DNA of 64,000 nt from Prevotella sp. (lineage in GTDB: Bacteria; Bacteroidota; Bacteroidia; Bacteroidales; Bacteroidaceae), in NCBI GenBank assembly GCA_045597685.1, contig JAZLKO010000008.1:3097-67096 (forward strand). The letters are read 5' to 3'. Under the pieces are notes generated by a model. That model did no database searches and was not told the origin of the DNA. It saw only the letters and a list, made by a program, of their open reading frames with translations. Position 1 is the first letter of the stretch. Each line of letters opens with the position of its first letter. Position numbers and translations under genes: made by a program. Shown in pieces: positions 1,267 to 49,695 of this stretch.

Positions 1267-1863
1267 ATGGATGCAAAGAAATTAAAGAAATGTATAGTTG
1301 ACTATGCTCTTGCAGAGTTTATTTCAAAAGGAATAAAGTCTGTAAAGATGGACGATATCGCCAAAGGTGTGTCAATATCCAAACGCACATTATATTTGAT
1401 TTTTCCTACGAAAGAGTCACTGTTGACATGTTGCATAGAAGAGTCGCGTGAGAAGCAGCATGCAGAAATGGTGAAGATTGATAATGAAACTAATGGTGAT
1501 GTAATCAGTATAATAGTTGGGATGTTGCATCTGCAAATGGATAGATTTTCCAAAATCAATCCGATACTTTATGAAGATATTCAAAAATACCCTGCAATAT
1601 TGAAAAAGCTTGAGTCAGAAGACAAAGAACAAGAGAAACGTATCTTGGCTTTTTTCAAACGTGGTGTTGCCCAGGGGGTATTTCGGAAGAATCTGAACTA
1701 CAAGATTGTTGCAGAACACATGCGAATACAGGCAAGAGGCATTATGGACTACAAAATGTATTTGCGCTATGAGATGGCTGACATTGTCAAGAATATGTCG
1801 ATGGTTATATTGCGCGGACTACTGACCGACAAGGGATTGGCTATTTATAAAGCAAATGTCTAA
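1267..1863 (+). CDS. TetR/AcrR family transcriptional regulator
   Basis: N-terminal HTH GIKSVKMDDIAKGVSISKRTLYLIFPTKESL. Confidence 0.9.
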   Translation: MDAKKLKKCIVDYALAEFISKGIKSVKMDDIAKGVSISKRTLYLIFPTKESLLTCCIEESREKQHAEMVKIDNETNGDVISIIVGMLHLQMDRFSKINPILYEDIQKYPAILKKLESEDKEQEKRILAFFKRGVAQGVFRKNLNYKIVAEHMRIQARGIMDYKMYLRYEMADIVKNMSMVILRGLLTDKGLAIYKANV

Positions 1864-4031
1864 ACACGTTCAACCACCCGAACTCCTTTTATTTTCTTGA
1901 GATTCTTTATTAGCGACTCTATCTTAGTTGTGTCATGGACTGATACTACCAAAGTGCCACTGAATAATCCGTTGTCGCTGTTGATGTTGATTGAGCGAAG
2001 CGACATTTTTTCTTCAACAACAATGTTTCGAGATATGTTGTTCACGATTCCAATATCATCCTTACCAATAATTTTCAGTGTGACATCGTAGAGCGAAGTA
2101 CCTTTTCCATTCCATCTGGCCTTTAATATTCTATAGCCAAAACGCTGTTTCATGTCAGTAGCATTTGGGCAGTTTTCACGATGGATTTTTATACCACCAT
2201 TGGCTGTGACGAAGGCAAAAATCTTGTCGCCGAATACTGGATTGCAGCATTTTGCCAACTGGTAATCAATGCCTTTGAGATTGTGGTCAATAATCAGTTC
2301 GTCGCTATTGTTGGATGAGTCAGTATCGTGAGTCTTGCTCAAATCGAAGGTATCAGCACTCACCTTGTCGTTGCTTTGTAAAGTGTTATCTCTTAGAGCG
2401 ATGTATTTGTCAATTACCTCGCTGACTTCAAGGTTCTTGTCGGCAATGTCTTTATAGAATGAAGTGACGCGTTTATAACCAAGTTTTTTGATGAGTTTCA
2501 TCATCAGCGATTCTTCGATGTCAATCTTATTGTTTTTGAATCGCCTTTCAATCATTTCTTTTGCAAGTGCGCTTTGCTTTACTTCCTGTTCCTTGAGTGC
2601 AAGGCGTATCTTGCTTTTTGCATGACTGCACTTGACAATCTTAAGCCATTCCAAACGTGGTGATTGCACACTTGATGTGATGATTTCCACCTCGTCTCCG
2701 CTACGCAGTTCTTGGCGAATGCTCACTACTTTACCATTTATTTTTGCACCTGTGCATTGGTTGCCTATTCGTGAATGAATGCGATAGGCAAAGTCCAATA
2801 TGGTTGAACCTTTAGGAAACTTAAGCAAGTCGCCTTTCGGAGTGAAAGCATAGACTTCTTCCTCGTCGAGTTCGATGCGGAACTGATCCATCAGCTGCAT
2901 GTCATCGTTGCTTTCAAGTGCTGCGCGTATGCCTGACAACCAATCTTCTATGCCATGACCACTCGTCTTGACACCTTTGTAGCGCCAGTGTGCAGCCAGT
3001 CCATGCTCTGCAATGTCGTCCATCCGTTCTGTACGGATTTGTACCTCGACCCATTTGTTGTCGGGTCCAAGCACTGTTATGTGTAATGACTCATAGCCAT
3101 TGGTTTTCGGGACGGATAACCAGTCGCGCAGACGGTTTGGGTTTGGCTGGTACATATCGGTAACGATGGAATAAGCTTGCCAGCACAGCATTTTTTCGGC
3201 TTTTTCTGGTGAATCAATTATGATGCGTATGGCAAAAATATCATAAACCCCTTCAAATTCACATTTTTGCTTTTTCATCTTCTGCCAGATGCTGTGTATG
3301 CTCTTTGTGCGGGCTTTGATATGGAATTTCATTCCTGCTTCTTCCAGTTTTGCATTAATAGGCTTTACAAACTGCTGTATGTACTGATTGCGCACTTCTT
3401 CGGTGTCGTGGAGTTTTTCCTGAATATGGAAATAAGGTTTTGGTTCAAGATATTTTAGGCTTAGGTCTTCCAACTCCTTCTTCAATGAATACAATCCAAG
3501 TTTATGTGCAAGAGGTGCGTAGAGGAATGATGCTTCACGTGCAACCATTGAACGGGCTTCGATGTTCTCAGTATCGCCAATACTGCGCATGAGGTTTACG
3601 CGGTCGGCGATCATGATGAGTATCACACGCATGTCGGCGGCAAAACTAATCATCAGATTACGGAAATTCTCTGTTTCCACTGATGTGTTTTTTTGGTATA
3701 GCTGGCTGATTTTATTCAGTCCATGTACGATATGAGCAACATCATCGCCAAAGTCGGTTTTTATATTGTCTTCTCCGTTGGAATCATTCTTGCATAAAGA
3801 GTAGAGTAATAGTCCAAGCAAGGCTTCGCGCATTACGCCTATTTCGGTAGCAAAGAGTTTGATAGTCTGCAAATTCATGATTATAGGGTCGAATCCGAAT
3901 GCGTCAGTGGCTGGCTCGTTCTGCATAAAATTATGAATATATTTCTTTAGCAGATTGTCAGTGTCTTGGTTATCACTCTTAATGTATGGTGCTACCTCTG
4001 AAATCAGGGTTTCTAATGCTTGAAGTTTCAT
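1860..4031 (-). CDS. relA: RelA/SpoT (p)ppGpp synthetase with TGS and ACT domains
   Basis: ARTKSIHSIWQKM, YDIFAIRII, PKTNGYESLH, EVQIRT, AAHWRYK, FTPKGD (TGS), C-terminal ACT. Confidence 0.93.
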   Translation of the reverse strand: MKLQALETLISEVAPYIKSDNQDTDNLLKKYIHNFMQNEPATDAFGFDPIIMNLQTIKLFATEIGVMREALLGLLLYSLCKNDSNGEDNIKTDFGDDVAHIVHGLNKISQLYQKNTSVETENFRNLMISFAADMRVILIMIADRVNLMRSIGDTENIEARSMVAREASFLYAPLAHKLGLYSLKKELEDLSLKYLEPKPYFHIQEKLHDTEEVRNQYIQQFVKPINAKLEEAGMKFHIKARTKSIHSIWQKMKKQKCEFEGVYDIFAIRIIIDSPEKAEKMLCWQAYSIVTDMYQPNPNRLRDWLSVPKTNGYESLHITVLGPDNKWVEVQIRTERMDDIAEHGLAAHWRYKGVKTSGHGIEDWLSGIRAALESNDDMQLMDQFRIELDEEEVYAFTPKGDLLKFPKGSTILDFAYRIHSRIGNQCTGAKINGKVVSIRQELRSGDEVEIITSSVQSPRLEWLKIVKCSHAKSKIRLALKEQEVKQSALAKEMIERRFKNNKIDIEESLMMKLIKKLGYKRVTSFYKDIADKNLEVSEVIDKYIALRDNTLQSNDKVSADTFDLSKTHDTDSSNNSDELIIDHNLKGIDYQLAKCCNPVFGDKIFAFVTANGGIKIHRENCPNATDMKQRFGYRILKARWNGKGTSLYDVTLKIIGKDDIGIVNNISRNIVVEEKMSLRSININSDNGLFSGTLVVSVHDTTKIESLIKNLKKIKGVRVVERV

Positions 4032-4035
4032 GATT

Positions 4036-4241
4036 GGTTGTATGTTATTGGTTGTATGTTATTGGTTGTGGGTTGTGGGTTTTCGTTGTCGTCAGTATGA
4101 GGAGTTAAGGAGTTAAAGAAGTTAAGGAGTTAAGACATTACCTGGTTCCTGAGCCTATCGAAGGAGAACCTTGAACTTTGAACCATTTTTTATGGTTATG
4201 GTTATGGTTATCGTTATCGTAGCGCAGCGTATCGTTATCGT
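4036..4241. repeat. Chain of different short tandem repeats in an operon spacer
   Basis: TTGGTTGTATGTTA x2, GGGTTGT, GGAGTTAA x4, REP-like CCTGAGCCTATCGAAGG (4148-4164), GAACCTT/GAACTTT, (G/C)GTTAT hexamers. Confidence 0.85.
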
Positions 4242-4733
4242 TCACTTATTTAGTTCGATTATTTCCAAATCCTTGAAACTGCTACCATCTATGGTCAGCC
4301 GGATGATAGTGCGCTGTTGCTGCCATCCACTCAGTCCAGCTGCTCCAGGGTTGATGTGCAGAAGATTCAGATTTTTATCATATTTTACTTTGAGGATATG
4401 AGAGTGTCCGCTTATAAATAGTTGTGGTGGGTTGCTGTAGATTTTATGTGCAATGCTGGCATCATACTTGCCAGGATAACCGCCAATATGCTTCATCAGC
4501 ACGTCAACATCTTCGCATTTCCAACGGAGTATTTCAGGATAGGTAATCCTCACATCACCACCATCAATATTGCCATGTACGGCACGTAGAAGACAGATTT
4601 CGTTTAATCGTTCTGCTACATCCATATTTCCTATGTCGCCTGCATGCCAAATTTCATCGCATTCTGCAAAGTATTTGGCAAACTTCTCATCCCAGAAGGC
4701 GTGCGTATCACTGATGATGCCTATTTTTTTCAT
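4242..4733 (-). CDS. YfcE-like metallophosphoesterase
   Basis: IISDTH, HAGD, GNID, GHSH, NPGA motifs; likely start ATG 4733 overlapping the upstream stop. Confidence 0.9.
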   Translation of the reverse strand: MKKIGIISDTHAFWDEKFAKYFAECDEIWHAGDIGNMDVAERLNEICLLRAVHGNIDGGDVRITYPEILRWKCEDVDVLMKHIGGYPGKYDASIAHKIYSNPPQLFISGHSHILKVKYDKNLNLLHINPGAAGLSGWQQQRTIIRLTIDGSSFKDLEIIELNK

Positions 4734-5347
4734 AGTAACACCTTCTTTATGTATTCTGCCAAAAACTCTGCTGTACCGTTGATCCCTAATGTGCAGGAGT
4801 TGATGCAAAGGTCATAAAAGAACTTATCGCCCCATCGCTGCCCTGTGTAATAATTGTAGTAGTTGGCACGTTTTCGCTCTGTGTCGTTAATAATCTTTTG
4901 GGCAGTGGCTTCATTACATTGCCTGCGTGCCATAACTTGCTGAATTCTATATGGCAAGTCGGCATAGATGAAAATGCGCACTTTTTGTTTCATTTCACGC
5001 AAGACGTAATCGGCACAGCGACCAACAAATATGCAACGTTTGTCCTGAGCCTGCTGAAGAATGGCGTCGCTCTGAAATTTGAATAGCGAGCCTTGCGATA
5101 TTTGTTCGTTGTAATAATTGGCATGTCCTATGATGGGCACTTTGTTGAAAAGCAGATTGTGCAGCTTTCCATGGCGTTCATCATGGTCAATAAATAGTTT
5201 TTCTGCAAATCCGCTATCTTTGGCGGCAAGTGTCAGGATTTCCTTATCAAAAAGCTGACAATCGAACTTATCAGCCAATATTTTAGAGATTTCTTGTCCT
5301 CCGCTACCTAATTCGCGACCAATTGTTATAGAGAAAACATCATTCAT
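4730..5347 (-). CDS. Cytidylate kinase-like family protein
   Basis: ITIGRELGSGG P-loop, FVGRCADYVL, YDLCINS. Confidence 0.88.
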   Translation of the reverse strand: MNDVFSITIGRELGSGGQEISKILADKFDCQLFDKEILTLAAKDSGFAEKLFIDHDERHGKLHNLLFNKVPIIGHANYYNEQISQGSLFKFQSDAILQQAQDKRCIFVGRCADYVLREMKQKVRIFIYADLPYRIQQVMARRQCNEATAQKIINDTERKRANYYNYYTGQRWGDKFFYDLCINSCTLGINGTAEFLAEYIKKVLL

Positions 5348-9661: not shown

Positions 9662-9679
9662 TATGTTTACAATTAATTT

Positions 9680-9860
9680 ATTCAAGTTTCTCAAGTTCTT
9701 CAAACTCTCGAAACTCAAGGAGTTAAGGAGTTTCAATTGTGGAGTTAAGAAGTTAAGGAGTTAAGGAGTTAAGACATGAGCCTTGCGTCAGCAGTCAGAG
9801 TCTGTAGTCAGAGTCAGTAGTCAGAGTCAATAGTTATCGTTATCGTTATCGTTATCGTCC
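9680..9860. repeat. Chain of short tandem repeats between co-oriented genes
   Basis: CAAGTTTCT/AAACTCTCG block, GGAGTTAA x~6, GACATGAGCCTTG, AGTCAG(T/A) repeats, GTTATC x4. Confidence 0.88.
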
Positions 9861-9870
9861 GCAGCCAGTG

Positions 9871-12471: not shown

Positions 12472-12599
12472 AAGTAAGAAAAAACTCTGTTTTTTAATTG
12501 ATAATTGATAATTGACAATTGATAATTATGTTTTTTTAATAGAAAATCCCAAAAACCATCAGTCATCAATCGTCAACCATCAATCTTTTTATATTTTTG
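12469..12599. promoter_or_regulatory. Divergent promoter pair with the heptamer cassette (reverse orientation of 1118-1248)
   Basis: -7 boxes at 12469-12476 (-) and 12592-12599 (+); (AATTGAT/AATTGAC)n - core - (CATCAAT)-like repeats. Confidence 0.7.
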
Positions 12600-48931: not shown

Positions 48932-48992
48932 GTGGCGGATTTTCAACGATGACGATTCGCTGGCGCTACGATACGTTTCACTACGATAACCA

Positions 48993-49373
48993 ATGGAAGA
49001 ACACGAAAAGAAGACAAGAAACTTTAGGAAGTACCCAGTTTATCAAGCTACTGTTGAATACGCCACTTACATCTATCAAGTCACAAGTAAGATGCCTTGG
49101 TTTGAGAAGAAAGGACTTTGTGACCAGTTGCAACGTGCAGTTGTTTCTATAAGTAGCAATATTGCAGAAGGTGCAGCTCGACCTACAGATGCAGACTTCG
49201 CTCATTTTCTTGACACATCGCTTGGTTCCGCATACGAAGTCGAGACACAATTGGCTATTGCAAGAAATGTTGGCTATTTGGATGAGGACACATTCTTTGA
49301 GATGAATAAAAAGCTTCAGTCAATAGAAAAGCAATTGACTGCATTTATTAGTTCAATCCGAAAGTCATCGTAG
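48993..49373 (+). CDS. Four helix bundle protein (TIGR02436 / 23S-IVS-protein / Avd-like fold)
   Basis: DQLQRAVVSISSNIAEG, FLDTSLGSAYEVETQL. Confidence 0.92.
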   Translation: MEEHEKKTRNFRKYPVYQATVEYATYIYQVTSKMPWFEKKGLCDQLQRAVVSISSNIAEGAARPTDADFAHFLDTSLGSAYEVETQLAIARNVGYLDEDTFFEMNKKLQSIEKQLTAFISSIRKSS

Positions 49374-49409
49374 CCGAAGGCGTATCGTTATCGTCATCGT
49401 GCGAAGTTC

Positions 49410-49695
49410 GGTAGTGCCATACCACCGGAAGGAGGAGGATGGCAAGACCGTCCATTCGCAGTTAGAGATTGATTTTGTTGTAAACAAGGGTTTTCAGCGA
49501 TACTATATCCAATCGGCACTCAATGTTGACTCCAAGGAGAAGCGGGAGCAGGAGACTGCCTCACTGAACAGGGTCAGTGACTCGTTCAGGAAGATTGTGG
49601 TGGTGAAGGATGACATCATCCCCTGGACGGATGAGTCGGGTATCACTTATGTGGGCATCGAGGAGTTCCTGCTCAAGCATATCGAACGGCTGTAG
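49410..49695 (+). pseudogene. 3' remnant of the AAA/DUF4143 ATPase
   Basis: VVPYHRKEEDGK..QLEIDFVVNKG..YYIQSA...SFRKIVVV. Confidence 0.8.

Follow-up and report, generated by a model that had tools for sequence, protein, structure and literature searches.

The spacer between a phosphoesterase gene and relA in the genome of an uncultured gut Prevotella sp. is filled with stacked short repeats, one of which resembles the flank of a four-helix-bundle (4HB) gene found elsewhere on the same contig. A sequence-only reading had taken this stack for scars of repeated 4HB cassette insertion and loss between co-transcribed genes, and we asked whether that interpretation holds or whether the repeats have a different origin. 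The stretch of DNA analysed (hereafter the window) comprises 64,000 nt, positions 3097-67096 of contig C8, in a genome of 2.32 Mb (117 contigs, 41.5% G+C), labelled G000 where it is compared with other genomes of the genus.

Two genes on the minus strand border the spacer:

4242-4808, minus strand: Metallophos_2 calcineurin-like phosphoesterase (Pfam PF12850, E = 2.8e-29)
1860-4031, minus strand: bifunctional RelA/SpoT, with HD_4, RelA_SpoT, TGS and ACT_4 domains (Pfam)

The phosphoesterase, which likely starts at the ATG at 4733, ends in a TGA at 4244-4242, and because its orthologues align from about residue 24 to their last residues, this stop sits at the conserved C-terminus. The relA start codon (ATG) occupies 4031-4029, leaving a spacer of 210 nt (4032-4241) between two genes that we infer to be co-transcribed. 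RelA is 97-98% identical to that of one Prevotella sp. metagenome-assembled genome and about 60% identical to those of other species. An exact-protein look-up of the phosphoesterase returned no match, and a metagenome scan returned no same-species contig, yielding only relatives at 75% identity or less. In the nearest public genome, the relA contigs (L007 and L008; JAZLEX010000237.1 and JAZLEX010000055.1) begin within the coding sequence, at residues 141 and 161, which suggests assembly breaks or strain mixtures near the locus.

Tandem Repeats Finder placed five arrays in the spacer, together covering 74% of 4032-4241. The stack consists of hexamer, heptamer, octamer and 14-mer arrays with an interspersed "REP-like" word, all head-to-tail; its heptamer, REP-like and octamer modules are as the sequence-only reading had described them. 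Its order on the sense strand is 35-nt module, (CCATAA)x3, GTTCAAG-type heptamers, TCCTTCGATAGGCTCAGGAACCA, (TAACTCCT)x4, CTGACGACAACGAAAA, (CCCACAA)x2.6, (CCAATAACATACAA)x2.6, CCAATC and ATG. The individual elements are:

4208-4242, minus strand: 35-nt dispersed module, sense AACGATAACGATACGCTGCGCTACGATAACGATAA, the putative "orphan arm", recognised by its BLAST copies and its match to the 4HB left flank
4216-4235, minus strand: 20-nt core ACGATACGCTGCGCTACGAT of the 35-nt module
4190-4207, minus strand: (CCATAA)x3 hexamers, continuing the AACGAT hexamers (Tandem Repeats Finder, TTATGG x4.7, 95% matches)
4166-4184, minus strand: heptamers, sense GTTCAAG / AAGGTTC, x2.7 (Tandem Repeats Finder, GAACCTT x2.7)
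4143-4165, minus strand: dispersed "REP-like" word TCCTTCGATAGGCTCAGGAACCA, recognised by GAYAGGCTCAGG copies genome-wide
4100-4134, minus strand: octamers, sense TAACTCCT, x4.2 (Tandem Repeats Finder, unit AGGAGTTA)
4082-4099, minus strand: degenerate hexamers, sense CTGACGACAACGAAAA, opening a second hexamer-to-heptamer chain (read from the sequence)
4064-4081, minus strand: heptamers, sense CCCACAA (GGTTGTG), x2.6 (Tandem Repeats Finder)
4033-4069, minus strand: 14-mer CCAATAACATACAA x2.6, abutting the relA ATG (Tandem Repeats Finder)

According to Tandem Repeats Finder, the TTATGG/TTATCG hexamers together span 4190-4242. The repeat had been said to begin right after the upstream stop codon; the two do adjoin, but the module runs from 4208 to 4242 and its first A is shared with the phosphoesterase TGA, so that its true start lies one base inside the stop. 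Every module of the spacer points the same way, and a search of 4032-4241 turned up no inverted repeat. The term "arms" is therefore apt insofar as sequence is shared with cassette arms, and fails insofar as it implies an inverted pair.

The spacer is built almost entirely from material that recurs in the genome. With a match defined as 16 nt or longer and no less than 90% identical, 92% of it is found again at one other locus at least and 82% at no fewer than three, the sole locus-unique part being the 14-mer CCAATAACATACAA, which has no second genomic copy. Copies within the 14-mer array, and likewise within the GGTTGTG array, are 100% identical to one another. The GTTCAAG heptamer unit also comes after the 35-nt module on C46 and C28, the AACTCCTT octamer family comprises 48-53 arrays genome-wide, and GAYAGGCTCAGG has 18 genomic copies distributed over spacers and ORFs alike. 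The word (C)CTTCGAYAGGCTCAGG(A/G), found for instance at C10:7523, C99:7487 and C28:35099, is read in different reading frames (STGSG, LRQAQ), and hypothetical proteins from many phyla may contain words like it.

The sense strand of the spacer is poor in G (39% A, 29% C, 22% T, 11% G). Its RNA is predicted to fold no better than shuffled sequences (z = +0.93), with roughly 110 nt before the relA AUG unpaired in the predicted fold. No terminator-like site, sigma-70-like site or TAnnTTTG box was detected on the sense strand of the spacer, and the only known RNA family scoring above threshold in the window was a tRNA located outside the spacer.

BLAST and pattern scans identified about 14 free-standing copies of the 35-nt module in the genome: four on C28, two on C96, one each on C40, C46, C59, C93, C99, C108 and C116, and the one in this spacer. 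The spacer copy is identical at 35 of 35 positions to C40:26548-26582 and 91-97% identical to the others. At least 12 of the 14 copies are in sense orientation relative to the neighbouring genes, and 11 of the 14 fall in open frames 60 codons long or longer, each of these copies encoding the peptide N-D-(N/D)-D-T-L-R-Y-D-N-D-N (the NDNDTLRYDNDN frame). A second frame through the module (TITIRFATITI) is equally stop-free, yet none of the eleven uses it. Pfam matches place the module between the activator-interacting and core-binding domains of sigma-54, inside the single AMP-binding (adenylation) domain match of an NRPS-like protein, in the central loop of an MFS transporter and between the domains of a DUF5107-TPR protein; in a ComEA-like protein it lies in a linker. 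In NadD (C116:2793-3509), the module is part of an insertion absent from six orthologues. The same protein has a second insertion of 28 residues (about LRTSQTQRESLLSLCFGANEEKTRSGLKQSLP), also missing from the six orthologues and probably repeat-derived. On C28 and C96 copies of the module form C-terminal tails, and on C108 the module supplies the stop codon of the upstream gene. The copy in the phosphoesterase-relA spacer is among the few that are non-coding.

The companion arrays are similarly widespread. Genes were delimited with a crude longest-ORF caller that swallows arrays into ORFs, so that the intergenic counts given here are underestimates and start sites are approximate. Even so, 416 of 881 spacers contain arrays of period 5-9, compared with about 40 once the sequences are shuffled; array rows number 694 in the real spacers and 30-49 in shuffled ones, and intergenic DNA, roughly 11% of the genome, holds 845 of the 1,390 arrays. 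The array families of the other modules in the phosphoesterase-relA spacer are among those filling these 416 spacers. Array density reaches 0.29 per kb here, against 0.05-0.06 per kb at other Prevotella loci, and arrays probably fragment the assemblies of this lineage as well as misleading ORF callers. Both the orientation and the order of arrays are constrained: sense-to-antisense counts are 40:8 for AACGAT, 27:1 for AACCCTC and 18:2 for AACCCAC, hexamers precede heptamers in 11 cases and follow them in none, and AACGAT precedes AACTCCTT in 4 cases and follows it in none. A second spacer in the window, at 9662-9870 between two minus-strand genes, carries sense (GATAAC)n, (TACTGAC)n, TCTTAACT/AACTCCTT octamers and GAACTTGAA, and so has the same grammar as the phosphoesterase-relA spacer.

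The phosphoesterase-relA spacer is thus probably a non-coding, one-directional chain of dispersed modules belonging to this lineage, forming an open relA leader, rather than a graveyard of 4HB cassettes. The 35-nt module and its companion arrays are copied between unlinked sites, and such copies, with slippage on the spot, make up the spacer. No transposase was found; we infer that copying might proceed by recombination or template switching between arrays, accompanied by local slippage. Copies would survive where reading of the sense strand is harmless, that is, in protein loops, linkers and tails, and otherwise between cistrons. At this locus, the outcome would be a G-poor (11% G), predicted-unpaired stretch running up to the relA start codon, which might thereby be kept accessible. 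Translation in Bacteroidota initiates without Shine-Dalgarno pairing and unstructured A-rich leaders are favoured, so that an unpaired leader should leave the relA start codon open to initiation. In line with such a role, predicted structure at the start site is weaker in about 160 genes with array-rich leaders (-6.4 versus -9.0 kcal/mol, p = 7e-12, with crude gene starts). Composition, predicted folding and ORF-based starts of this crude kind point to leader accessibility as a candidate function, and the arrays may be neutral or tolerated passengers.

Among the other explanations, the one that fares best holds that the arrays are cis-elements, tandem sites on mRNA or single-stranded DNA bound by a sequence-specific or single-strand-binding protein (S1, a Csp-like protein or the 4HB protein), and that they set the translation or stability of relA. 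The arrays abut the start codon in sense polarity, their modules follow a fixed order, about 160 genes carry array-rich leaders, and a comparable proposal has been made for the TAACTGA repeats of Beggiatoaceae (PMC4679880). The multiplicity of unit sequences, often several to a spacer, nevertheless speaks against a single specific binder; these modules are also translated as parts of proteins, and no candidate binding protein was identified. We regard this explanation as unlikely.

The cyanobacterial STRR heptamers belong to the class of long simple sequence repeats (LSSR), and the closest known kind for the spacer is this LSSR/STRR-like group of long-unit tandem repeats. LSSR have units of 5-11 nt (Mrazek et al., 2007, as summarised in PMC4679880); in Beggiatoaceae, Cyanobacteria and Bacteroidetes, TAACTGA repeats precede start codons (PMC4679880), and Xanthomonas carries GGGAATC heptamers both singly and as inverted pairs (PMC4692102). 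The spacer likewise consists of head-to-tail units within the 5-11-nt range, beyond chance expectation and enriched between genes. In common with LSSR, the arrays of this genome have tandem units of 6-8 nt, far above chance and concentrated intergenically; they are often "forward", with a start codon devoid of a Shine-Dalgarno site only a few nucleotides away; and they comprise single arrays and inverted pairs that are lineage-specific, their position not being conserved between species. Two features set them apart from LSSR: here the chains join many unit families, whose 5'-to-3' order is fixed, and they include a non-tandem 35-nt element, 91-100% identical at unlinked sites, which lies mostly in-frame inside proteins.

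The in-frame copies call to mind the Rickettsia palindromic elements (RPEs), short repeats found in-frame in unrelated protein genes (reviewed in PMC10969869), and the tandem repeats of Borgs, which create disordered protein regions (PMC9879509). In this Prevotella lineage the module has spread by copying both to operon spacers and to housekeeping proteins, namely sigma-54, NadD, an NRPS adenylation domain and an MFS transporter. Like RPEs, it sits in-frame in many unrelated housekeeping proteins, where it encodes a conserved hydrophilic peptide located in loops or linkers and absent from orthologues. Dispersed in-frame insertion thus describes the module family, with its 11 such copies, the spacer copy being non-coding. 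Unlike RPEs, which measure about 150 nt, the module is 35 nt long, has a core palindrome of 2 bp only, is embedded in tandem hexamers and also occupies spacers; nor were terminal inverted repeats or target duplications evident in the module contexts viewed.

The module belongs to a wider family of units. It is composed of AACGAT hexamers around a core, ACGATACG-CTKCG-CTACGAT, this core being the minimal form in a family of units built as ACGATACG-hairpin-CTACGAT (pattern ACGATACG-N(4-22)-CTACGAT). Allowing at most one mismatch, the 20-nt core ACGATACGCTKCGCTACGAT occurs 13 times in this genome, and it is present in only 5 of 201 genomes of the genus. A reversed-pattern control was absent from all 201, which, set against the 13 core copies here, indicates that the similarity is not due to chance. 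The family is most developed in G091, another species of the genus, which has 93 units with 60 different inserts, arranged in head-to-tail chains of two to five; 67 of the 93 have perfect stems of 4-6 bp, flanking G and C included. A further genome, G016, has 10 units, and the present genome 13, all of the minimal CTKCG form except those in 4HB arms. Chains in G091 and G016 have a constant 10-mer linker, CTACGATACG, between mini-hairpins whose stem differs from unit to unit, and often open with AACTTCGT (e.g. G091 L127, L134 and L136; G016 L116, L125 and L175). They are intergenic and often antisense to the flanking genes, so the sense rule seen here is not valid for the unit family as a whole.

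These chains of short intergenic hairpins, with constant flanks and varied yet paired stems, resemble REP/BIME elements. They differ in that their units run head-to-tail rather than alternating and in that no Y1/RAYT transposase (PF01797) was found in G000, G091 or G016 (92%, 85% and 90% complete, respectively), control genomes being positive. The spacer core itself permits only a 2-bp stem (GC-TGC-GC), compared with 4-6 bp in its G091 relatives. A REP/BIME-RAYT identity for the spacer was rejected on these grounds, there being essentially no hairpin and no Y1 transposase. We matched the mini-hairpin family of G091 and G016 to no described repeat. A reverse-transcriptase partner for the units was also considered and dropped: such genes occur in G000 alone, and the unit-rich G091 has none.

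The same units recur in the arms of 4HB cassettes. The comparator in the window comprises the following features:

48945-49410, plus strand: 4HB cassette, with an upstream arm at 48945-48992 and an inverted downstream arm at about 49374-49410
48993-49373, plus strand: 4HB gene (PF05635, 23S rRNA IVS protein; Pfam E = 7.4e-32)

The resemblance reported between 4208-4242 and the reverse complement of the left flank of this gene was borne out at 26 of 29 positions: when 4214-4242 is aligned to the reverse complement of 48945-48973, the two agree in 26 of the 29 columns and differ in 2, the remaining column being a 1-nt gap. The upstream arm of the cassette contains the units ACGATTCG-CTGGCG-CTACGAT and ACGATACG-TTTCA-CTACGAT, its downstream arm the inverted unit ACGATACG-CCTTCGG-CTACGAT, and the two arms pair in the predicted RNA, in both minimum-free-energy and centroid folds. 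In another species (G195, contig C43) a 72%-identical 4HB gene carries inverted copies of the ACGATACG-type unit on both flanks. A unit common to the arms of these two cassettes, in the window and in G195, is the likeness that ties the module to ORF-bearing 23S rRNA intervening sequences and to 4HB genes (PF05635/TIGR02436, Avd-like) bordered by inverted repeat arms. More generally, in this genome and four others, inverted tandem arrays border the 4HB genes on both sides, and their units are of many types. Two of these types, GGAGTTAA and GTTCAAG, both present in the spacer, serve as 4HB arms in G016 (GTTCAAG at L156), bringing to three the unit types of the spacer that act as 4HB arms somewhere in the genus. 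The module, copied into proteins and spacers and sharing its unit with 4HB arms, links long-unit tandem repeats, in-frame selfish insertions and IVS-like cassettes, which are customarily kept separate.

The kinship between module and arm is real and most likely reflects a shared repeat pool, although a closer tie of the spacer units to cassettes than such a pool is conceivable. Inverted copies drawn from the same pool would form the stem of a 4HB cassette, and a common source of this kind explains the sequence match between spacer and arm. A bolder proposal is that ACGATACG-x-CTACGAT units and their companion arrays are cis-elements of a so far unrecognised, transposase-free copy-and-paste process that builds the arms of 4HB (Avd-like) cassettes, one-ended events scattering single sense copies over spacers and protein loops. 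Were this so, the trans-acting part would be played by the 4HB protein or some host factor, and the spacer would record several one-ended events; we consider it quite unlikely.

Also considered, and very unlikely in our judgement, is that the first half of the spacer is a former translated, repeat-built C-terminal tail or inter-domain linker, cut off by a stop codon or frame change when the phosphoesterase gene met relA. On the minus strand, 4137-4245 holds a 35-codon frame that opens at a GTG overlapping the phosphoesterase stop (VNDNDTLRYDNDNHNHNHKKWFKVQGSPSIGSGTR, then a stop codon) and may be due to chance or be a former coding tail. In this frame the module, the GTTCAAGG unit and the GGCTCAGGA word give the same peptides as in some proteins (NDNDTLRYDNDN, VQGS, TGSG); module copies on C28 and C96 do form C-terminal tails, and the phosphoesterase-relA junction is new in this lineage. 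On the other hand, the phosphoesterase ends at its conserved C-terminus in another frame, the 35 codons may be open simply because A/C-rich repeats contain few stop codons, and the GGCTCAGG word is read in other frames elsewhere (e.g. SLRQAQG on C46).

The scar interpretation supposes that each module is the surviving arm of a 4HB cassette inserted between the co-transcribed genes and later lost, over repeated rounds. It draws on the 26/29 match of a spacer piece to the window cassette arm, on the ACGATACG-type unit flanking the related 4HB gene in G195, on the GGAGTTAA-type and GTTCAAG-type arrays serving as 4HB arms in G016, and on the occurrence of 4HB cassettes between operon genes. The most direct comparison, with the same junction in relatives, found no counterpart: the phosphoesterase-relA junction was present at none of 78 relA loci, none of 28 phosphoesterase loci and none of 80 metagenome phosphoesterase loci, and was absent in G091 and G195. 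With the junction missing from every relative examined, a 4HB gene at this site is missing from them too. The frdA-frdB junction, occupied by a 4HB gene in this genome (C83:8842-9301), served as a stand-in (loci L283-L312), sampled in 29 genomes of the genus with both genes on one locus. In 7 of the 29 it is filled by an insert of 450-538 nt that contains a 4HB homologue 41-55% identical to that of G000, flanked by complementary arms. The unit type of the arms varies among the filled genomes, and the comparison suggests that the two arms of the cassette co-vary. The remaining 22 are empty, with a spacer of 0-46 nt that carries no tandem-repeat arm, and an orphan arm was never seen. At this junction there is either a gene with both arms or a plain spacer, which indicates that gene and arms come and go together.

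Absence without an orphan arm at frdA-frdB, together with the sense bias and in-frame location of the module copies, argues against scars at the phosphoesterase-relA locus. Cassettes are likewise found between operon genes and share arm sequence with the spacer, but their arms pair into a long stem, and the spacer falls outside the 4HB/IVS class in having no gene, no partner arm and no stem. No PF05635 ORF or fragment was found between the phosphoesterase gene and relA, the PF05635 matches in the genome lying at six places, all outside the spacer. Abundances do not fit either. The sequence-only reading had expected the arms to be associated genome-wide with the 4HB family; the units are indeed akin, but about 14 free-standing modules stand against a single matching cassette, and random scars would not be sense-oriented in at least 12 of 14 cases and in-frame in 11. 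Against about 1,390 arrays, this genome has 4 good 4HB genes and no more than about 29 inverted pairs of arrays, while G091 combines 93 units with one 4HB gene, on whose contig no matched unit was found. Cassette insertion and loss is accordingly a highly improbable source of the stack, and with that account removed for the locus, the spacer joins a group of more than 400 in the genome that are likewise filled with repeats. The filled and empty frdA-frdB junctions, together with array-bearing and array-free leaders in a setting where initiation is not led by Shine-Dalgarno sites, constitute testable material.

Least probable of all is that the stack is a contingency (phase-variation) locus in which gain or loss of 7- or 8-nt units changes relA expression between cells: the perfect copies of the 14-mer and GGTTGTG arrays (100% identical) imply recent slippage, and long-unit simple repeats have been tied to variable expression in other bacteria (PMC4679880; PMC12721329), but copy numbers are low (2.6-4.7), arrays are present in nearly half of all spacers, those of housekeeping operons included, and no promoter whose spacing could be tuned was found in the spacer.

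At 12495-12585 of the window (C8:15591-15681), the two halves of an inverted heptamer pair, TAATTGA / CATCAAT, are separated by 30 nt and enclose no gene. This pair is one of the about 29 in the genome, some of which are likewise closely spaced, with 23-110 nt between the two arrays.
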